From positions 149,970 through 213,969 of the forward strand of contig CAWGMA010000003.1 of NCBI GenBank assembly GCA_963823555.1: a DNA stretch of 64,000 bases, written 5' to 3'. This document shows, in pieces, positions 37,759 through 59,692 of the stretch. The translations under genes were made by a program, and so were the position numbers. How positions within the stretch are numbered: position 1 is the stretch's first letter; the number at the start of each line of letters is the position of its first letter. The DNA is from Candidatus Eiseniibacteriota bacterium (GTDB taxonomy: Bacteria; Eisenbacteria; RBG-16-71-46; CAVPCR01). The notes below the pieces were generated by a model. It had not been told where the DNA came from and searched no databases. It was given only the letters and a program-made list of their open reading frames with translations.

Positions 37759-38382
37759 CTACTTGCGGACGAGGCCCTGTGTCTTCAGGTCCTCGACCAC
37801 GGCGCTGCTCACCTGCTTGACGACATCGGAGACCGATTTCGGATCGAAGGTCTCGGACACCGCCGTCCACAGGAGCTTCTCGGTCGCCACATCGTAGAGA
37901 TTGCTCTCGAGAACGACCGTCAATGCGGTCTGCTCCTGAGCGGGCTCGACCACGGTCTGGTAGGACTGGTAGTAGTAGTTGTAGTAGCCGTTATAGTAGG
38001 ACTGCGGCACCGTGTAGCTCGCCGGATCGGTGTAGGTCGTCGTGGTATCGATGTTCTTGAGGCGGGTGACGATCACGGCCTCGACGCCTGCTTTCTTCAC
38101 CTCGGCTTCGACCTCTTCGCGGGTGAAATCGCTCGTCGGCAGGACCTGGTACCCCAGCAACGCGCGCACCCCGTGTTCTTCCAGCCGCCCGGCGAGCTCG
38201 GTCTCGAAGAGCCGGCGGTTTTCCTCCGACCGACCTGCTGCGATCACCATCATGCTCGAGACCGGCTGGCCGGTGTAGCTGGGGTCGCGCCACCGTCCGA
38301 CGAGCTCCGTGTTCGAGCCGCAGGCGACGGCAATGAGAACCGCCATGAGCGCTGGGAACGCAATCCTGATACGGGATGACAT
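37759..38382 (-). CDS. Lipoprotein with Tyr-rich low-complexity segment (DUF4136-like)
   Basis: Lipobox LIAVAC|GS. The Tyr-rich segment is YYNGYYNYYYQSYQ. Length is about 207 aa. Confidence 0.5.
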   Translation of the reverse strand: MSSRIRIAFPALMAVLIAVACGSNTELVGRWRDPSYTGQPVSSMMVIAAGRSEENRRLFETELAGRLEEHGVRALLGYQVLPTSDFTREEVEAEVKKAGVEAVIVTRLKNIDTTTTYTDPASYTVPQSYYNGYYNYYYQSYQTVVEPAQEQTALTVVLESNLYDVATEKLLWTAVSETFDPKSVSDVVKQVSSAVVEDLKTQGLVRK

Positions 38383-51608: not shown

Positions 51609-53450
51609 TCATACCTCGAGCCCGACGGCGCGCATCAGGGCGAGGGCGTTGCTCTTGGTGACGACTCCCGGCCGCATCTGGTAGTCGAAGGTCATGCGGC
51701 CGTCCTCGAGATGATCCTCGAAGTGCACGTTCGCGGCGCGGGGGGCCAGCACTTCGGCGACGTGGGCGAGCGCGAGATCATGGGTGGTCACGAGTCCGAT
51801 CGCGCCCCGCTCGATGAGGCTTCGCACCACCGCCTCCGCACCGATCTTCCGGTCATGGGAGTTGGTGCCGTGAAGGAGCTCATCGAACAGGAAGAGCAAA
51901 GGCGGCGCTCCACGCCCGAGCTCGACCAGCTGCTTGAGCCGCGTGATCTCCGCATAGAAGCGCGAGACCCCTGCCTTGAGGGAGTCGTGGATACCGATCG
52001 TCGCGCCGACGGCGAGCGGTGACAGGCGAAGCCGATGAGCCCGCACCGGGCCGCCGGCCAGGGCCAGCACCGTGTTCACGCCCGCGGTGCGGAGGAGCGT
52101 GCTCTTCCCCGACATGTTGGAGCCGCTCACCACCAGCACCTGGAGCTCGCGGTCGAGCCGGAGGTCGTTCCGCACGAGGAGGCGCTCCGGAATCAGTGGG
52201 TGCCCGACCCCCTCGGCCTCGAACAGGGGGCCTTCAGCGGCGATCTCGGGGAAGGGATCCGCCGGATGCTCGTAGGCGTGGCTCGCGAGCGAGGACAGGG
52301 CTTCGATCTCCGCCACGGCGTCGATCCAGGCCTGGATCTCCCGCCCGTGCCGCGCGCGCCAGGACTCGATGGCGAAGGCGAGCTGCAGTCGCCAGAGGAG
52401 GAGGAACGCCAGCGGCGCAAAGAAGAGGTTGTGCTGCGAATCGGCCAGCTCGATCAAGCGCGCGAGCCGGGCGATCTGCCTCGAGGCGGGAACCCCCGCG
52501 AATTCGAGTGAGGCCCGCAGCGTCCGCAGTCGCGTCGCCTGCCATGGCTCGCGCTCGATGCGGGCGAGAAGATGAGCGAGGAGCGACAGCTCGGCGGCGG
52601 CGTGCTCGGCGCCCGCGTGCACGAGCTGAACGCGGTCCTTGAAGGACCTCTCGAAGAGCATCCTCGCGAGCACGACGGCGACGAACGGGTATGGACCGAG
52701 GCCGAAGCGGAGCCAGCCCACGAGCGTTGCGATCCCCAGCACGCCGAGGAGGAGAGCGATCGCCCGGGCTCTCGTCGGGTGGAGCATGATCGGCCCCGCC
52801 CCCCAGATCGAGAGCTCGACCGGATTCATGCCGGCCTCGACATCGGGACCGAGAACGGCGAGATCTTCCCGCAGGTCGAGCCGGTCCCTGAGCTCGGCGA
52901 CCGCCCCCTGGCGGTCGCGGAGCACGGCCAGCGTGGCCGGCGCAATGAGCCACGAGGCGAGAGTCTCCATGCCGCGACTGGTGCGAGCCTGACAGAGGAG
53001 CTCGAAGAGAGAGCCGATGCCGAAGACGTCGAGGTCCGCCGCGTACGGGTGATCCTCGGTGCGGAAGCGCTCGCCGGCCTCGCCACGGCCAGCCCAGTCA
53101 TCCGCGAGGCGTTCGAGGCCGCGGTCATAGAACTCGGCCGCGCGCAGCACCTGGGCTCGCGCGGTACGGACCCGCGCGTGCAGGAGGACGAGAATCACGA
53201 AGAGGGCCAGCGGAACGGATAGCCAGAGGATGGAGAAGGCGTGACGCGCGATGGCCAGCCAGGCCAGGAGCACGAGCGCGGCGAAGGCCGCGAGGCGAGC
53301 GTTGGCGATGGCGATGTCGCGCCGGCCGAGACGATCGGCCTCGCTCCGTCGTGCCGCGAGGCGCTGCTCGTAGGTCTCGCGGGGAACGGACGGCGTCCTT
53401 CGCTCATCCGCACCTTCATCCGATGCCAAGGTCATCATCCGGTCCATCAT
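51609..53450 (-). CDS. MutS domain V (ABC-ATPase) protein with N-terminal transmembrane helices and no mismatch-binding domains
   Basis: C-terminal Walker A GSNMSGKSTLLR, plus ...LFLFDELLHGTNSHD...TTHDL (MutS domain V). N-terminal hydrophobic helices (AAFAALVLLAWLAIA..., WLSVPLALFVILVLL). The start is approximate (ATG at 53450, next to a GAGGAG box). Confidence 0.75.
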   Translation of the reverse strand: MMDRMMTLASDEGADERRTPSVPRETYEQRLAARRSEADRLGRRDIAIANARLAAFAALVLLAWLAIARHAFSILWLSVPLALFVILVLLHARVRTARAQVLRAAEFYDRGLERLADDWAGRGEAGERFRTEDHPYAADLDVFGIGSLFELLCQARTSRGMETLASWLIAPATLAVLRDRQGAVAELRDRLDLREDLAVLGPDVEAGMNPVELSIWGAGPIMLHPTRARAIALLLGVLGIATLVGWLRFGLGPYPFVAVVLARMLFERSFKDRVQLVHAGAEHAAAELSLLAHLLARIEREPWQATRLRTLRASLEFAGVPASRQIARLARLIELADSQHNLFFAPLAFLLLWRLQLAFAIESWRARHGREIQAWIDAVAEIEALSSLASHAYEHPADPFPEIAAEGPLFEAEGVGHPLIPERLLVRNDLRLDRELQVLVVSGSNMSGKSTLLRTAGVNTVLALAGGPVRAHRLRLSPLAVGATIGIHDSLKAGVSRFYAEITRLKQLVELGRGAPPLLFLFDELLHGTNSHDRKIGAEAVVRSLIERGAIGLVTTHDLALAHVAEVLAPRAANVHFEDHLEDGRMTFDYQMRPGVVTKSNALALMRAVGLEV

Positions 53451-53773
53451 CTCCTCAGAACGGCTGTGGCCTGCACGGGCTCTACAGGCGACGGATGGTA
53501 GCAGGTGTGGCCAGATTTGCCTTCCTGGTTCTAACCCTATGTCATGCCTGGCGTTGAGGCGCTGTTGCCGCGGCCGGTCCACGCTTCGGCTCAGCGCCCA
53601 GGGCCCGGATTGCGGAGTTCAGTCGCTTCCGCTACATTCCGCTGTCGGCATTCGGTCTCGCGATGTGCTGCCGCGGACGCGAGTTGGCTCTTGTCCGGGG
53701 TTCGACCCGATCGACTGCGCCACGGGAGCGGCGGGTATCCGGCCACATCGACCTCTATTAAGGGAGCAGAACG

Positions 53774-54097
53774 ATGAAGCACAGGTCTTGGCTGATCTTG
53801 GCGATGCTGTTGCTGATCGGATCCGCGTTCCTTGCCTGCGGCACGAAGGAAGCCGAGCAGGCGGGACACGAAGCCGGTCAAGCGATGGAACAGGCGGGTG
53901 AGGCCGTTCAGGAAGGCGCCGAGCAGGCCGGCGAAGCGGTCGGCGAGGCGGTTGAAGGAGCTGGCGAAGCGGTCGGCGAGGCGGCCAAGGACGCCGGCGA
54001 AGCGGTCGGCGAGGCGGCCAAGGACGCCGGCGAAGCGGTCGGTGAGGCGGCCAAGGACGCCGGCGAGAAGACGAAGGAAGCCGTCGGCGGCCATTAG
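53774..54097 (+). CDS. Small lipoprotein composed of tandem 11-aa repeats (GEAAKDAGEAV)
   Basis: AAGGGAG RBS upstream. Lipobox FLAC|GT. The remainder is Ala/Glu/Gly-rich repeats, predicted helical (LEA/apolipoprotein-like). Confidence 0.6.
   Translation: MKHRSWLILAMLLLIGSAFLACGTKEAEQAGHEAGQAMEQAGEAVQEGAEQAGEAVGEAVEGAGEAVGEAAKDAGEAVGEAAKDAGEAVGEAAKDAGEKTKEAVGGH
53915..54075. repeat. 33-bp tandem repeats (gaagcggtcggcgaggcggccaaggacgccggc, 3 near-identical copies plus degenerate flanking copies) inside the lipoprotein gene
   Basis: Direct repeats read from the sequence. One copy has a single c-to-t change (ggtgag). Confidence 0.8.
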
Positions 54098-54217: not shown

Positions 54218-56020
54218 CTAGCTCCCGAGAAGCACCTTCTCCTCCGACTCGCGTGCGAACTGATTGGTGTAGAGCCGGTAGTAGGCGCCACGCTGTGTCA
54301 GGAGTTCGGCATGGCGTCCCTGCTCGATGATCCGACCGTCCTCGATGACGAGGATCCGGCTCGCGGAGCGGATGGTGGAGAGCCGATGGGCGATCACGAA
54401 GCTCAGTCTGCCCGTCAGGATCTTCTCGATGCCGTCCTGGATCAGGCGCTCCGTCTCCGTATCCACCGACGATGTCGCCTCATCCAGGATGAAGATCTCG
54501 GGATCAGCAAGCACGGCGCGCGCGAGCGCGACGAGCTGCTTCTGTCCGGTCGACAGCCTGGTTCCACCCTCACCCACGGGCGTGGCGTAGCCCTCCGGCA
54601 GACCGGCGATGAAGCGGTCCGCATTGGCCCATCGCGCCGCGGCGAGCATCTCCTCGTCGGTCGCCTCGAGCCTCCCGTAGCGGATGTTCTCGGCGATGGT
54701 CCCGCTGAAGAGATGCGGTGACTGGAGCACGGTGCCGAGACGCGATTGCAGCCAGGGAAGCGAGTAGTCGCGATAATCGCGCCCGTTGAGCTTGATCGCG
54801 CCCGCGGTCGGCTCGTAGAAGCGGCAGAGAAGCCCCATGATCGTGCTCTTGCCGCTTCCCGTGGCCCCGACCAGGGCGATGGTCTCGCCCGCATGCACCG
54901 CGAGGTTGAAATCGTCGAGCACCGGTTCCCCCGCCTGGTAGGCGAACGACACATGGTCGAACTCGACCGTCGCGATCCGGCCCGGGGGCGGATCCGCGGC
55001 GAGCGCGGCCGGTGTATCCCGGACTTCGGGCACCGTGTCGAGGAGCCCCTGCAGCCGCTCGGCCGAAGCCTGGGCCGCCTGCAGCTGGGTGAAACGCTCC
55101 GCCATTTCCTGGATGGGGATCGTGAACAGGGTCGCGTACTGCATGAAGGCGATGAGAGTTCCCAGGCTCAACTCGCCGCCGACGGCGATCCCACCGCGCC
55201 AGAGCGCGAGTCCCGCCCCCACGCTGCCCAGCGTGATGACGATCGGCAGGTAGACCGCCGCCGTGAGGGCGTTCCGGATCGAGGACTGGTACATCTCGCC
55301 GGAGAGCACCTGGAATTCGGCCAGGCTCTCCGCCTCCCGTCCCAGCGACTTGGTCGTCTGCACTCCGGTGATCGCCTCGTTGAAGCTGGCGGTGATCTGG
55401 GAGTTGATGCGGCGCACCGCCCGCTGGGTGCGCAGGAGCCGCCGCTGGAACCAGAGGCTCACCACCACGAGCGGGGGCACGATGACCATCACCATGAGGG
55501 CCAGCCGCCAGTGGAGAGTGAGCATGAAGACGGTGATGCCGGTGAGCAGCGCCGATCCCCAGACCATGTCGAGCATGGTCCAGGGGATGACCGAGGACAG
55601 GCGACTGGCATCGGAGGTGAGCCGCGCCATCAGCCAGCCCACGGGGCGGCGGTCATAGAACGAGAACGAGAGCTCCTGCAGATGGGCGAAAGCGTCCCGC
55701 CGGAGGTCGTGAGCGAGTGCCGCCGCCGTGCCGCCGGCCGTCACGATGAAGCGCCAGATGAGAAGCGCGATGACGGCCACCAGTCCGAGGTAGTAGATGC
55801 CGTAGCGGGCCAGGGCCTGCCTGTCGGCGGCCGTCGCGCTGTCGATGATCCGGCCGGTCAATAGCGGCAGGACGGCGTCGGCGACAGCGAGCACGACGCC
55901 GCATAGGGCGAGCGTGGCCAGCCGCCGGCGATAGGGACGGGCATGCGCGACGATGCGCCGCCAGAGGGCGACGTCGAGACCCCTGAGCGGCTGCTCGTCT
56001 TGTAGTTCATGTTCCATCAT
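54218..56020 (-). CDS. ABC transporter ATP-binding/permease protein (exporter half-transporter, subunit 2)
   Basis: Six-helix TMD followed by an NBD with Walker A GATGSGKST, signature LSTGQKQLVALARA and Walker B FILDEATSSVD. GGAGGTG RBS upstream. Its ATG overlaps the stop of the upstream ABC gene (ATGA). Confidence 0.9.
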   Translation of the reverse strand: MMEHELQDEQPLRGLDVALWRRIVAHARPYRRRLATLALCGVVLAVADAVLPLLTGRIIDSATAADRQALARYGIYYLGLVAVIALLIWRFIVTAGGTAAALAHDLRRDAFAHLQELSFSFYDRRPVGWLMARLTSDASRLSSVIPWTMLDMVWGSALLTGITVFMLTLHWRLALMVMVIVPPLVVVSLWFQRRLLRTQRAVRRINSQITASFNEAITGVQTTKSLGREAESLAEFQVLSGEMYQSSIRNALTAAVYLPIVITLGSVGAGLALWRGGIAVGGELSLGTLIAFMQYATLFTIPIQEMAERFTQLQAAQASAERLQGLLDTVPEVRDTPAALAADPPPGRIATVEFDHVSFAYQAGEPVLDDFNLAVHAGETIALVGATGSGKSTIMGLLCRFYEPTAGAIKLNGRDYRDYSLPWLQSRLGTVLQSPHLFSGTIAENIRYGRLEATDEEMLAAARWANADRFIAGLPEGYATPVGEGGTRLSTGQKQLVALARAVLADPEIFILDEATSSVDTETERLIQDGIEKILTGRLSFVIAHRLSTIRSASRILVIEDGRIIEQGRHAELLTQRGAYYRLYTNQFARESEEKVLLGS

Positions 56021-57861
56021 GACGACACCTCCGAGGTCTCGGTCGCCTCCTCGTCCAGCAATTCGTCGCGCAGATTCTCCTCGAGCGCCGTCTGGATCTG
56101 CCAGAGCCGGCGGTAGAGGCCGTCTTCCGCGAGCAGTGTGGTATGCGATCCCTCCTGCAGGACTCGGCCCCGGTCCAGAGCCACGATGCGGTCCGCGTGC
56201 ATGAGCGTGGACAGCCGGTGGGCGATGACCACGGTCGTGTAGCGGCCGCGCCGCGCGCGGAGCGCGGTGAGGATCATGCTCTCGGTCTCCGTGTCCACCG
56301 CGGACAGCGCGTCGTCCAGGATCAGGATCGCGGGCTCGCGCACGAGCGCGCGGGCGAGCGCCACCCGCTGGCGCTGGCCGCCCGAGAGCGTGACTCCGCG
56401 CTCGCCAACGAGCGTGTCGTATCCGGCCTCGAAGCCGGTGATCGAATCGTGCACGCAGGCGGTGGCGGCCGCCTCGACGATCTCCTCGTCGCGGGCGGTG
56501 CCCCGTCCGAGGCGGATGTTCTCCCGCACCGACTTCGAGTAGAGAAAGGGCTCCTGCATGACGACGGCGATGTGGGCCCTGAGCGCCTTCCGGCCGAGGG
56601 TCGTGATCTCCCGCCCGTCGATGCGGATCGAGCCCTGAGTCGGGTCGTAGAAGCGGAGGAGGAGGTTCACGATCGTCGACTTGCCCGCGCCGGAGGGGCC
56701 GAGCAGCGCCAGCGTCTCGCCCGATCCCACGCGGAAAGAGACCTGATCGAGGACTCGCGGGCCGTCGCCATGGGCGAAGCTCACCCCTTCGAACTCGATA
56801 TCGCCGGCGACCGTCAGCGGTCCGCCGCGCAGGATCACCTCGCTCTCGCGCTCGGCACCGAGGATTTCCTCGATGCGGCCCATGGCCACCGAGGCCTTGC
56901 CGAGCTCGGTCAGGATGCGACCAAGCATGCGGATCGGCCAGATGAACATGTTCACCGCAGCGAGGAAGAAGTAGAACGTGCCCACCGGGATCTGCCCCAG
57001 CGCCAGCCAGAGGCCGCCCACCGCCACCAGCACCACCTTCTGGCCCATGCACATGAAGTCGGAGATCGACCAGTACCAGGCGAGGAGCCGGAAGTACTGC
57101 GTGTCGAGATCGCGATAGGTTCGAATCCGCTCGCCGAACTTCTCCTTCTCGAAGTCCTGGCGGGCGAAGGCACGCACCACCCGGATCCCGGTCAGGTTCT
57201 CCTGGAGGGTGCTCGTCATTCGCCCCTCGGCTTCATCCACCAGCTTGAACGTCGCTCGCACCCTCCTGAAGAAGAAGAACGAGAAGATGACGATCGGGGG
57301 GATGAAGACCACCGAAACGGCGGCGAGTCGCCAGTCGAGGGCCACCATGAGCGGAATCGGCACCATCATCATGAGCGCCGCCCGTCCGATCTCGACGATC
57401 TGAGTGGCCAGGAACTGGCGAAACGTCTCCACGTCGGAGGTGCATCGCTGCACGAGGTCCCCGGTTTCGGCCCGGTCGTGGTAGGCCGCCGGCAGATGCG
57501 CGAGATGGTCATGGAGCCGATCACGGACGCGGCGCGCGATGGACTCGCTGGCCATGGCCGACCAGCGTCCGCGCAGGTAGGCGAACCCGCCGGCGATCGC
57601 TGTCAGGACGACGATGGCCACCGCCGCGATCCAGAGATGGCTCTGCAGGAACTCGCGTCCGCCGGCAAGACCGACAGCCCACCGGACGAGCGGGGCCGCC
57701 CTCTCGGGCTCGCTCGTGAGCACGCCGTCGAGCACCACCTGGGGCACGAGCGGGACCAGGTATATGAAGCATGAGCCGAGGACGAGCGCGAATAGCGCTC
57801 CGCCATAGCGGAGGCGTTGTCCCCTGGTCAGTTGCCAGATGAGTCGATGATTGGCGTTCAT
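56017..57861 (-). CDS. ABC transporter ATP-binding/permease protein (exporter half-transporter, subunit 1)
   Basis: TMD followed by an NBD with Walker A GPSGAGKST, signature LSGGQRQRVALARAL and Walker B LILDDALSAVD. Start taken at ATG 57861 (MNANHRLIWQ...). Confidence 0.9.
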   Translation of the reverse strand: MNANHRLIWQLTRGQRLRYGGALFALVLGSCFIYLVPLVPQVVLDGVLTSEPERAAPLVRWAVGLAGGREFLQSHLWIAAVAIVVLTAIAGGFAYLRGRWSAMASESIARRVRDRLHDHLAHLPAAYHDRAETGDLVQRCTSDVETFRQFLATQIVEIGRAALMMMVPIPLMVALDWRLAAVSVVFIPPIVIFSFFFFRRVRATFKLVDEAEGRMTSTLQENLTGIRVVRAFARQDFEKEKFGERIRTYRDLDTQYFRLLAWYWSISDFMCMGQKVVLVAVGGLWLALGQIPVGTFYFFLAAVNMFIWPIRMLGRILTELGKASVAMGRIEEILGAERESEVILRGGPLTVAGDIEFEGVSFAHGDGPRVLDQVSFRVGSGETLALLGPSGAGKSTIVNLLLRFYDPTQGSIRIDGREITTLGRKALRAHIAVVMQEPFLYSKSVRENIRLGRGTARDEEIVEAAATACVHDSITGFEAGYDTLVGERGVTLSGGQRQRVALARALVREPAILILDDALSAVDTETESMILTALRARRGRYTTVVIAHRLSTLMHADRIVALDRGRVLQEGSHTTLLAEDGLYRRLWQIQTALEENLRDELLDEEATETSEVSS

Positions 57862-57937
57862 CGCCCTGTTCCTGTGCGGCGGCGCCTTCAAGCGCCGCCG
57901 TCGCGAGGCCATGGGTCAGCGGTCGGGGAACGGGCGG

Positions 57938-58008
57938 AGAGCGGGCTCGGGCCGGATTCAGTCGGCAGAAAGCGATCGAGCCCGCTCCCCGGCGAGGGAG
58001 CGGGCTCG
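57938..58008 (-). promoter_or_regulatory. Three 11-nt elements forming mutually exclusive hairpins (candidate transcription attenuator) in the leader of the ABC exporter operon
   Basis: GAGCGGGCTCG occurs at 57938-57948 and 57998-58008. Its exact reverse complement CGAGCCCGCTC occurs at 57977-57987. The central element can pair with either flanking copy. Confidence 0.5.
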
Positions 58009-58032
58009 AAGGACGAGTCTCAAGTCAACGTC

Positions 58033-58122
58033 CTAGGAAGCCGGGCTCCCTCCATCCCCAGCCGGGGGAAGGACGACCAGGCAAGGGACCTGGCCGGTGA
58101 TGATGAGGACGTTGATCTTCAT
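58033..58122 (-). CDS. Candidate 29-aa leader peptide MKINVLIITGQVPCLVVLPPAGDGGSPAS
   Basis: ATG at 58122 is preceded 9 nt upstream by AAGGAG. Stop TAG at 58033-58035 lies 25 nt before the first hairpin element. It is below the ORF-track length cutoff and was found by reading the reverse strand. Confidence 0.35.
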   Translation of the reverse strand: MKINVLIITGQVPCLVVLPPAGDGGSPAS

Positions 58123-58228
58123 GCGTAAACGCTCCTTAGGGGTTCGCACGGCGGATTCCCACCGGATTGATATGCGAACACTCTACGCGCATCGCAGGGC
58201 TCTGTAAAGCGGAATCATGAATTCGCCT

Positions 58229-59692
58229 TCACCGCTCGTAGGATTCGCGGCGAGATGCAGCGGAGAGCGGTGTCAGAAAGCGGAGAGGATCGGAGAGCAC
58301 TTGCGCTCGGACCTCGGCGAGCGTGGTCCCGCCGCCGTAGCTCACAGCCGATTGCAGATGCCCGCGCAGCCGATGGAGGATGGCGACGACACTCCCCTGG
58401 TAGGGGATCTGGACCTCATGGCCTTCTGCCGGGATGCCCAGCGCCGATTCGAGCGGCTCGCCATCATCCTCGAGCTGCGCTCCGAAGACCGCCTGGGGAG
58501 AGGTCATACCGCGATAGATCTTGCGCTTCTCACGAGTGGCGGGGTCCTCGATCACATGCCCCGGTGCTTCGTCGGTCCCGGAGAGCATGCTGCCGAGCAT
58601 CACGGTCGAGGCCCCGCAGATGAGGGCCAGGAAGACGTCCTTGTCGTGACGCACGCCACCGTCGGCGATCAGCGGGATCGAGTCGCCCAGCGCACAGTGG
58701 ATCTCGCGAATCGCCTGCAGCTGGGGCACACCGGCGGCCGTTTCGAGCCGCGTGCGGCAGCCGCGTCCGGGTCCGATGCCGATCTTGATGCCATCGACGC
58801 CGAGATCGGCGAGGAAGCGGGCACCATCGGCGGTGCCCACATTGCCGGCGATGAGCGTGAGATCGCCGAGATGACGGCGGAGCGCGGCCACGGCATCCCG
58901 CATGGCCAGCGAATGCCCATGGGCGATGTCGACGAGGATGGCATCGGTGCCGGCGGCCAGAAGCTCCTGGGCGCGTTCGACGGAATCTCCGCGCGCACCG
59001 ACCGCCGCGCCGACCAGCAGTCGCCCCTTCGCGTCCCGGCTCGAACCGGGAAGCTGGCGTGAGATCAGGATGTCCTTCTTGGTGATGAGACCGGCAATGT
59101 GGCCTTCCTCGTCGACGAGCGGCAGCTTCTCGATCCGGTGCTCGAACATCACCTGCTCGGCATCCTCGGCCGCGATCCCCGGCCGGGCGATGATCAGCTT
59201 CTGGCGTGGCGTCATGAACTCATCGACACGATGATCGAGCCGATCCCCGGTCCAGGGGATATCGCGGTTCGAGAGCAGGCCGGCGAGGACGCGACTGCCA
59301 TGCTCTTCCTCGATCAGGATGCCGGTGATGTTGTGCTGCTTGATGAACTCGATGGCATCGCGGATGGTGACGTCCCGGGGGAGAGAGAGCGGCTGCTCGA
59401 CGACGTAGCCCTGACTCCGTTTCACCCGCTTCACCATGGCGACCTGCTCGGCGATCGGCATCGCGCGATGGATGAAACCGATGCCGCCCTCGAGCGCCAT
59501 CGTCTTCGCCATCTGCATCTCGGTGACGCTGTCCATGTTGGCGGAGACGATGGGGAAGTGGAGGGCATGGTGCTTGGAGAGCCGCGTCGTGAGGGAGACC
59601 CGTCGGCGCGAGGCGACCCGACCCAGTTGCGGCCGGAAGAGGAAATCATCGTAGGTGCGGCCGATGAAGATCCGTTCGAGATCCCTGTCCAT
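58229..59692 (-). CDS. guaB: IMP dehydrogenase
   Basis: The sequence MDRDLERIFIGRTYDDFLF..., a CBS pair, and the catalytic loop IGIGPGRGCRTR are present. Length is 487 aa. Start coordinate is plus or minus 1 nt. Confidence 0.95.
   Translation of the reverse strand: MDRDLERIFIGRTYDDFLFRPQLGRVASRRRVSLTTRLSKHHALHFPIVSANMDSVTEMQMAKTMALEGGIGFIHRAMPIAEQVAMVKRVKRSQGYVVEQPLSLPRDVTIRDAIEFIKQHNITGILIEEEHGSRVLAGLLSNRDIPWTGDRLDHRVDEFMTPRQKLIIARPGIAAEDAEQVMFEHRIEKLPLVDEEGHIAGLITKKDILISRQLPGSSRDAKGRLLVGAAVGARGDSVERAQELLAAGTDAILVDIAHGHSLAMRDAVAALRRHLGDLTLIAGNVGTADGARFLADLGVDGIKIGIGPGRGCRTRLETAAGVPQLQAIREIHCALGDSIPLIADGGVRHDKDVFLALICGASTVMLGSMLSGTDEAPGHVIEDPATREKRKIYRGMTSPQAVFGAQLEDDGEPLESALGIPAEGHEVQIPYQGSVVAILHRLRGHLQSAVSYGGGTTLAEVRAQVLSDPLRFLTPLSAASRRESYER

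Follow-up and report, generated by a model that had tools for sequence, protein, structure and literature searches.

A probable leader-peptide transcription attenuator ahead of a heterodimeric ABC exporter operon in a Candidatus Eiseniibacteriota bacterium

Introduction

Most of the work on leader-peptide control of efflux pumps concerns Bacillota (e.g., bmrBCD (PMC4191407) and vmlR (PMC9226507) of Bacillus subtilis), and the locus described here raises the question of whether an exporter operon of a Candidatus Eiseniibacteriota bacterium is governed in a similar way. The locus lies in a stretch of DNA of 64,000 nucleotides (nt) (GenBank assembly GCA_963823555.1, contig CAWGMA010000003.1, positions 149,970 to 213,969 of the forward strand), referred to here as the window, and consists of two adjacent genes for ATP-binding cassette (ABC) half-transporters, ABC1 and ABC2, preceded by a small open reading frame (ORF) and three 11-nt elements. 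An initial annotation of the window took the three elements for the terminator and antiterminator of an attenuator. Answering the question requires deciding which pairing would end transcription, which would prevent it, and what would choose between the two. The comparisons reported here make it quite probable, as far as sequence can indicate, that a ribosome-mediated (leader-peptide) transcription attenuator controls the operon, with the terminator formed by the first two elements and the antiterminator predicted to arise from the last codons of the leader ORF.

Layout and conservation of the leader

All features described here lie on the minus strand, and all coordinates are positions in the window. 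The elements on which the argument depends are listed below, with the source of each in brackets.

58033-58122, minus strand: leader ORF, 29 codons plus UAG, MKINVLIITGQVPCLVVLPPAGDGGSPAS (ORF reading, relatives)
58037-58053, minus strand: element E1, GGAGGGAGCCCGGCUUC, the last leader codons and predicted 5' arm of the antiterminator (RNAduplex, folds)
58010-58034, minus strand: apical hairpin of the antiterminator, AGGACG / 13-nt loop / CGUCCU (folding)
57995-58009, minus strand: element A, UCGAGCCCGCUCCCU, 5' arm of the terminator, including the first 11-mer (folding, alignment)
57976-57990, minus strand: element B, GGGGAGCGGGCUCGA, 3' arm of the terminator, including the second 11-mer (folding)
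57966-57975, minus strand: U-rich tail, UCGCUUUCUG, the putative termination point (sequence, relatives)
57935-57949, minus strand: element C, CGAGCCCGCUCUCCG, including the third 11-mer, a 15-base-pair (bp) complement of B (duplex energy)

The 11-mer CGAGCCCGCTC or its complement is present in three exact copies, in A (58008-57998), B (57987-57977) and C (57949-57939), and element A begins 24 nt past the leader stop codon. Both the copies and the complementarity of the middle one to its two neighbours are thus as the initial annotation had described them. Estimated from base composition, the chance of the 11-mer is ~1.5e-6 per position, and that of two extra copies within ~100 nt is ~1e-7. 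The only fourth exact copy in the 64 kb (37938-37948) falls within a coding region, has no partner, and was dismissed as a chance occurrence. The whole region (321 nt) is strongly structured, with a folding z of -5.5 against dinucleotide shuffles. A search of the region against Rfam at permissive E-values gave, as its best matches, chance miRNA-like hairpins of 14-19 bits, far under the thresholds, and a scan of 11 related loci at the gathering threshold gave zero matches.

Related loci (designated L001, L151 and so on), including more distant homologues, were gathered by scanning a genome collection with ABC1, by scanning metagenomes with an ABC1 alignment, and by looking up the closest proteins. 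The order of promoter, ORF with its Shine-Dalgarno (SD) sequence, hairpin with U-rich tail, and ABC1 is kept in 16 other distinct loci with ABC1 53-84% identical to that of the window, in groups of 79-84% (L151, L152/153, L154, L155), 63-69% (L156, L157, L008, L158, L159, L160) and 50-60% (L001, L003, L004, L005, L006, L073). Most loci have 23-33 nt between stop codon and A, and ABC1 follows after a further 81-116 nt in the main clade. The source labels of the relatives include Phycisphaeraceae, Phycisphaerales, Planctomycetota, Planctomycetaceae, Nannocystaceae and a "beta proteobacterium" metagenome-assembled genome (MAG). Their hosts, uncultured bacteria of high G+C content, carry the annotations Phycisphaerae, Planctomycetota and Myxococcota or are unclassified MAGs. 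An automated scan for an SD-preceded ORF followed by a terminator was positive in 15/22 loci with ABC1 identity of at least 50% (0/22 reverse-complement controls), in 7/21 loci at 40-50% identity (0/21 controls), and in 11/112 loci below 40% identity (4/112 controls).

Analogous leaders with unrelated sequences also precede the low-G+C metagenome homologues L079, L081 and L083. Other metagenome homologues, L076 and L084-L095, likewise have an SD-preceded ORF and a terminator; across this low-G+C set the exporter is 35-45% identical, and some of the loci come from human-gut metagenomes. Leader-peptide control may be recurrent in this transporter family.

Predicted terminator and antiterminator

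Elements A and B form a helix of 15 bp (58009-57995 with 57990-57976) closed by a 4-nt loop, CGCC, with a folding energy of -33.1 kcal/mol and z = -6.4, and together with the U-rich tail this hairpin is a predicted intrinsic terminator. The initial annotation had given loops of 10 and 28 nt for the two possible pairings of B; the layout stands, and the figures are replaced by the 4-nt loop of the extended A:B helix and by a gap of 27 nt between the 11-mers of B and C. Every curated relative likewise has a U-rich tail after the hairpin, although G+C content in this part of the window is 62-74%. The core of the stem, CCCGCUC/GAGCGGG, is invariant in 13 aligned loci, with covarying pairs on its flanks, and is unchanged across loci whose ABC1 proteins are just 53-69% identical. 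In a MAFFT alignment of the relatives (A2), 83% of the cells in the stem are paired, and compensatory changes are seen at its base. Loci with a hairpin of the form CCCGCT..AGCGGG have it at this position and nowhere else, and the 64-kb window contains a single one. The frozen core is most simply explained if each arm has two partners to fit.

The second partner of the 5' arm was sought in 20 curated loci with a scan that placed no restriction on position over 100-285 nt upstream of A. In 18/20 loci the best upstream partner of A ends between -13 and +11 nt from the last base of the leader stop codon, and it is this location that places the antiterminator at E1:A, i.e., the predicted pairing of the 3' end of the leader ORF with A. 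In the window, E1 is the best partner of A across 204 nt upstream, ends one base ahead of the UAG, and forms a duplex of -24.4 kcal/mol (RNAduplex, p = 0.045), while duplex energies of the E1:A type beat those of shuffled sequences at p <= 0.06 in 12/20 loci. In several relatives the stop codon is found inside or beside the E1 equivalent, a copy of the terminator 3' arm, which reads GGA GCG GGU GCA UAG in four loci of the 65-69% clade (L157, L159, L008 and L158); that of L156 is otherwise the same and ends in UGA. More distant equivalents read UUGAGCGGGUAG in L001 and CUGAGCGGGU in L004.

Covariation is consistent with both pairings of A, as alignment column 74 in this element covaries with B (GC:8, AU:5) and with E1 (UA:5, CG:4, UG:4). 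E1:A is paired in 74% of A2 cells, compared with 30-51% for a slid partner; the E1 of the window clade is placed 2 columns off the register of the 65-69% clade in this alignment, which understates pairing there, and per-locus duplex tests were used instead. The window transcript was also folded as it would stand before B exists, with a 27-nt mask representing the ribosome. In these folds a ribosome with its P-site at codon 3, 8 or 16 allows the antiterminator to form, whereas one at codons 22-30 abolishes it.

A further conserved motif, RCGCUGAYC (GACGUUGAC, 58031-58023 in the window), is found 1-8 nt past the stop codon in 10/11 main-clade loci (the window, L151, L152, L154-L159 and L008), in no fixed reading frame, where it sits in the 5' arm or the loop of the antiterminator apical hairpin. 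No long-range partner for it was found downstream of the terminator (all p > 0.45).

The leader ORF and its promoter

Upstream of the switch elements, and overlapping E1, are the features from which the leader would be transcribed and translated.

58180-58208, minus strand: sigma-70-like promoter, TTTACA / 17-nt spacer / TAGAGT (promoter scan)
58143-58178, minus strand: 5'-terminal stem-loop of the leader transcript, UUCGCA...UGCGAA (folding)
58132-58137, minus strand: Shine-Dalgarno sequence AAGGAG of the leader ORF (read in the sequence)
58096-58074 and 58073-58051, minus strand: two hairpins internal to the ORF (folding)

The promoter at 58208-58180 is the sole promoter-like site between 53500 and 62000, and transcription would start near 58173. 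By eye, TTGGCR/TTGCTC-N17-TAnnnT is found at the equivalent position in nine relatives (L151, L152, L154, L156, L157, L008, L158, L159 and L001). The 5' stem-loop has an energy of -14.8 kcal/mol (z = -3.1) and is present in the minimum free energy (MFE) fold of the whole region as well.

The 29-codon ORF, which had been noticed in the initial annotation, was found as described, with AAGGAG 9 nt ahead of the ATG at 58122 and with its UAG at 58035-58033. Leader-equivalent ORFs of 18-30 codons are present in 19 curated relatives, in those relatives that were read an SD-like motif lies ahead of the leader start, and gene callers have called the small ORF in three assemblies (L151, L153 and L155). 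Nucleotide identity is higher within the ORF than in the flanking spacer. The combination of a strong SD sequence, presence in every close relative, and a stop codon locked to the RNA element is the reason that the small ORF is read as a regulatory leader, and its sequence features support its behaving as a genuine one. Similarity of the encoded peptide is confined to the closest clade, in which MKI[NT]V is conserved; elsewhere the peptides agree only where E1 dictates the codons. The leader contains no runs of codons for a single amino acid, making amino-acid supply unlikely as the signal.

The two hairpins within the ORF have a combined energy of -27.0 kcal/mol (p = 0.013 against shuffles), and the first 3 nt of E1 fall within the second of them. 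Hairpins of different sequence occupy equivalent positions in the ORFs of L151, L152, L154 and L155. According to the folds, these structures may be candidates for RNA polymerase pause sites or for anti-antiterminators.

A model of attenuation

Taken as a ribosome-mediated attenuator, the leader would operate as follows. Transcription would begin at the 58208-58180 promoter, and the 29-codon ORF would be translated as it is transcribed. A ribosome keeping pace with the polymerase to the stop codon would cover E1, the last approximately six codons of the ORF, leaving A available for B once B is transcribed, and the polymerase would be released at ~57975-57966 (the OFF state). A ribosome stalled or delayed with its P-site before approximately codon 18, or one that has not loaded, would expose E1; E1:A would then form an extended hairpin with AGGACG...CGUCCU at its tip, B would stay unpaired and the polymerase would read through into ABC1-ABC2 (the ON state). 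After read-through B would pair with C, in a fold approximately as stable as the terminated one. What the sequences show is the set of elements, the complementarity between them, how well they are conserved, and the constant position of E1 relative to the stop codon; from these we infer the termination itself, its coupling to translation and the signal. By analogy with characterized systems, the most likely inducing signal would be translation stress (e.g., ribosome-targeting compounds).

While these data favor the attenuator described above, several points weigh against it. The U tract UCGCUUUCUG is interrupted and falls below the cut-off of a strict terminator scan, and one relative (L002) carries the ORF yet has no clear terminator. 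The E1:A helix of the window clade is interrupted, with 8 + 5 bp on either side of an internal loop, and the individual p values are marginal, being 0.045 in the window and 0.10-0.23 in L151-L155. Curated ORFs were picked by eye, which may bias the statistic for the stop codon. When the P-site was placed at codon 12 or 19, masked folding gave another MFE structure. At -27.8 kcal/mol the antiterminator hairpin is less stable than the terminator, at -33.1 kcal/mol, so that the model relies on kinetics. Additionally, the leader peptide is poorly kept between clades, and no sensing motif in it can be named.

Element C and a possible second checkpoint

The model leaves element C to be accounted for, together with the spacer and the ABC1 ribosome-binding region that follow it.

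57901-57975, minus strand: C-rich, G-poor spacer from the terminator to ABC1, with a composition like that of a Rho utilization (rut) site (composition)
57862-57936, minus strand: helix of CGCCCGUUCC (57936-57927) with the ABC1 ribosome-binding region GGAACAGGGCG (57872-57862) (MFE)

The B:C duplex has an energy of -34.6 kcal/mol (p < 0.005), or -37.2 kcal/mol as a hairpin, and has no U tail. An element complementary to B and placed 24-38 nt past it is significant in eight other loci (L154, L155, L156, L157, L158, L003, L006 and L083). Window elements A, B and C also share a clade-specific extension, CGAG/CUCG. When full-length transcripts were folded in two forced states, with A pairing downstream and B upstream (terminator) or with A pairing upstream and B downstream (read-through), the energies of the two differed by just 0.3-5.7 kcal/mol in 11/11 main-clade loci, and this near-equality implies that C balances the folds. 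Element C is real and conserved, and would act downstream of the termination decision, where three roles are conceivable: stabilizing the read-through fold, hiding a Rho loading site, or passing the signal on to the ABC1 ribosome-binding site. In L003 (~173-207 of the upstream extract), L006 and L083 there is a second terminator-like hairpin, the 5' arm of which is the C equivalent; the free 3' arm of the first terminator could cancel the second in these loci.

One way of joining these observations is a relay of five elements (E1, A, B, C, and either the SD region or the C-rich spacer), in which a single signal, the position of the ribosome, would flip two linked decisions. Formation of E1:A would cancel the terminator, and the freed B would capture C, lifting a second block consisting of Rho loading or of SD sequestration. 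The freezing of the CCCGCUC/GAGCGGG core across several phyla would follow from each arm having two partners. To our knowledge, a conserved downstream partner for the 3' arm of a terminator is not part of any attenuator described. We put the relay forward tentatively, as a possibility that may well prove wrong.

The first form that such a second block could take is a Rho loading site masked by C: with A:B formed the spacer would be left single-stranded, and Rho, loading there, would end transcripts that leak past the imperfect U tract, before or within ABC1; in the read-through state B:C would bury the tract and shield the untranslated spacer. A C-rich, G-poor composition is typical of Rho loading sites, and the spacer reaches a C/G ratio of 1.85 in 78-nt windows, at the 98.8th percentile of the window. 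The ratio is 1.6-2.5 in 11/11 main-clade loci, at the 96th to 99.9th percentiles of the window background. The conservation of the complementarity of C to B at its fixed distance, the imperfect U tracts throughout the clade, and the largely paired ribosome-binding site of ABC1, which would leave the spacer and early ABC1 poorly protected by ribosomes, are all consistent with this proposal. There is also the precedent of an upstream ORF coupled to Rho-dependent termination at toiL-topAI (PMC12121999). The argument for masking is nevertheless one from composition, the C-richness is partly a by-product of a pyrimidine-rich C and of an anti-SD sequence that complement G-rich partners, and B:C buries just ~45 nt of the tract. 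Masking of a Rho site is for these reasons rather doubtful as the role of C.

The second form is a translational relay of the ermC type, in which C or its 3' flank would be the anti-SD sequence of ABC1 and capture of C by B would free the SD sequence, switching transcription and translation together. In the window the SD helix is part of the MFE fold (-40.7 kcal/mol, z = -2.1), persists in both modelled states, and encloses a very stable 10-bp GC hairpin directly upstream of the ABC1 ribosome-binding site (57900-57877, CGGCGGCGCU UGAA GGCGCCGCCG). Small GC hairpins are seen at the same position in L151, L156 and L160. The ABC1 ribosome-binding site is mostly paired, with a probability of being unpaired of 0.2-0.4. 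Candidate anti-SD pairings can be written for the window (CGCCCGUUCC with GGAAC(A)GGGCG), L152/L154 (CCGCCCGCC with GGCGGGCG), L156 (CGCUCGUC with GACGAGCG), L157 (GCUCGUCGC with GCGAUGAGC) and L160 (GACUCCGGUUC with GAACCUGGAGUC), and with A held unpaired the probability of an unpaired SD sequence rises by 0.08-0.20 in six relatives (L151, L152, L154, L155, L158 and L159). However, the significance of the pairing is weak locus by locus (p = 0.04-0.1 at best, and many loci are non-significant), no such pairing is present in L008 or L158, and the anti-SD sequence of the window only abuts B:C, with an overlap of 2 nt, and the accessibility of the SD sequence fails to rise in the modelled ON state (0.33 to 0.26). 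A relay to translation is accordingly unlikely.

Alternative explanations

A reading that would replace the ribosome as the sensor is that a factor acting in trans (a protein, small RNA or ligand) reads the CCCGCUC/GAGCGGG core or the RCGCUGAYC loop, with translation of the ORF being secondary. Such a factor would fit the invariance of the core at the low ABC1 identities given above and the presence of a conserved loop motif for which no RNA partner was detected. Against it, Rfam gave no match, no regulator gene is conserved beside the operon in the contexts viewed, the constraint of two partners can itself explain a frozen core, and an SD-preceded ORF with a fixed stop codon is conserved throughout. 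We regard a trans-acting factor as very unlikely.

The proposal of the initial annotation, that termination is decided by a choice between two mutually exclusive helices, A:B as terminator and B:C as antiterminator, is highly improbable; its placement of an attenuator before the exporter is retained here. It has in its favor the perfect complementarity of B to both neighbours, the stability of B:C (-37.2 kcal/mol) and the conservation of C in relatives. However, the U-rich tail follows A:B and not B:C, and C, lying 27 nt past B, is untranscribed when the polymerase stands at the termination point and is thus made too late to act as the antiterminator. This pairing also leaves unexplained why the partner of A is located at the stop codon in 18/20 loci, and the spacers of L001 and L005, at 8-9 nt, have no room for C and yet these loci keep E1, A and B.

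It is hardly conceivable that A:B is a plain terminator of the upstream gene, guaB, with the small ORF and the repeats being incidental: no other terminator lies between the end of guaB at 58229 and A:B, and guaB is also upstream in L151, L152 and L154, but there is a promoter between guaB and the hairpin, the relation of E1 to the stop codon is not expected of a plain terminator, and in L156, L157, L008, L158, L159 and L160, where the upstream gene is different or divergent, the ORF, E1, the hairpin and C stay with ABC1, from which it follows that the leader belongs to the ABC operon and not to guaB. A functional micropeptide (e.g., a substrate or partner of the exporter) is just as hard to credit, for while the ORF adjoins the exporter, the window peptide is fairly hydrophobic and the closest clade shares MKI[NT]V, the sequence is nearly unrelated between clades save where E1 dictates it (...GAGA* in the 65-69% clade), its length varies from 18 to 30 codons, and no maturation genes are nearby in the contexts viewed.

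The exporter and neighbouring genes

The genes downstream of the leader are the following.

56017-57861, minus strand: ABC1 half-transporter (Pfam, motifs, PDB relatives)
54218-56020, minus strand: ABC2 half-transporter (Pfam, motifs, PDB relatives)

The pair had been called translationally coupled, by an ATGA overlap, and heterodimeric in the initial annotation. The ATGA overlap is present, and each product has an ABC_membrane and an ABC_tran domain (Pfam). The Walker B motif of ABC1 is ILILDD, with Asp replacing the catalytic Glu, and that of ABC2 is IFILDE, containing the canonical ILDE; a motif search found no canonical xSGG[QE] signature in ABC2. Relatives in the PDB include TmrB and TM287 for ABC1 and TmrA, TM288 and BmrD/YheH for ABC2. 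Judged by these features, ABC1-ABC2 is a predicted heterodimeric type IV exporter with the usual single degenerate ATP site, and its nearest heterodimeric relatives by structure are TM287/288, TmrAB and BmrCD. An in-frame ATG at 57912, 17 codons upstream of the start used here (56017-57912 in the ORF list), was rejected as the ABC1 start, as homologues align from MNANHRLIW at 57861. This ATG falls in the loop of the helix that sequesters the SD sequence.

Upstream, guaB (encoding an inosine monophosphate dehydrogenase, IMPDH) ends at 58229, and no terminator was found from its stop codon to the leader promoter. Transcripts of guaB probably end at the attenuator hairpin as well, and read-through from guaB may feed the leader. 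Downstream of ABC2 on the same strand are an ORF of 167 amino acids with no Pfam match (53591-54094) and a MutS2-like protein with MutS domains III and V (51609-53582).

Comparison with characterized systems

In the papers searched, no such leader was found described for these lineages. The closest functional parallel is bmrBCD of B. subtilis, whose heterodimeric type IV exporter, with a single degenerate ATP site, is likewise preceded by a small ORF translated close to the promoter, by an intrinsic terminator and by an antiterminator alternative to it, and in which slow translation of the leader favors read-through (PMC4191407). Lincomycin, chloramphenicol and erythromycin induce bmrBCD, and induction by lincomycin is lost on ErmC-methylated ribosomes (PMC4191407). 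ABC2 of the window matches BmrD/YheH with E = 1e-94. The two leaders differ in construction: bmrB has 53 codons, contains its terminator, antiterminator and anti-antiterminator entirely within the ORF, and ends 119 bp before bmrC (PMC4191407), whereas the window leader has 29 codons, includes only the 5' arm of the antiterminator in its coding part, places its terminator 24 nt past the stop codon, and has the extra conserved copy C. The host is also a high-G+C uncultured lineage and not a member of the Bacillota. The parallel with BmrB that the initial annotation had drawn accordingly holds for function and fails for shared architecture. It is reasonable to call the leader functionally like bmrB, compared here by its published architecture, and it is not assigned to the BmrB family.

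As in attenuators of the Escherichia coli trpL type, the position of a ribosome on a short ORF would select either an antiterminator or an overlapping intrinsic terminator (summarized in PMC4191407), and the hairpins within the window ORF could act as pause structures. The window differs from this type in that its untranslated leader folds as the antiterminator, so that in the folding model the default without translation appears to be ON and not super-attenuated. The patAB genes of Streptococcus pneumoniae, a low-G+C Gram-positive bacterium, also have a Rho-independent terminator with a predicted antiterminator and anti-antiterminator before a heterodimeric ABC exporter, although no leader peptide is described for them (PMC4319486). 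Terminator mutations raise expression of this pump, indicating that attenuation matters for drug resistance (PMC4319486).

Two further systems resemble the possible second layer of control. The toiL upstream ORF of topAI-yjhQ in E. coli senses ribosome stalling, and refolding at the downstream ribosome-binding site is tied to premature Rho-dependent termination (PMC12121999), making it the nearest precedent for a second checkpoint of the kind proposed. That system works without an intrinsic terminator, whereas in the window an intrinsic terminator would be the primary device and a Rho or translational layer would be added to it. The vmlR gene of B. subtilis provides an example of multi-layer control of an antibiotic-response ABC gene, through pausing and attenuation of both transcription and translation (PMC9226507), but VmlR is an ABCF ribosome-protection factor and not a membrane exporter, and its leader is unrelated.

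Implications

The mechanism proposed here, ribosome-mediated attenuation, is a known one, found in this case in poorly studied bacteria with an unrelated and strongly conserved leader ahead of one subfamily of heterodimeric ABC exporters. The leader gives a testable handle on the inducers of this family of pumps. It also provides a compact motif for annotating such operons, for which there is no Rfam family and of which standard annotation often misses the small ORF. As a natural two-state RNA that is nearly isoenergetic and has an extra downstream element, the leader could reveal how intrinsic termination is joined to a second checkpoint. If a relay to such a checkpoint proves true, the leader would represent a genuine variant of attenuation.

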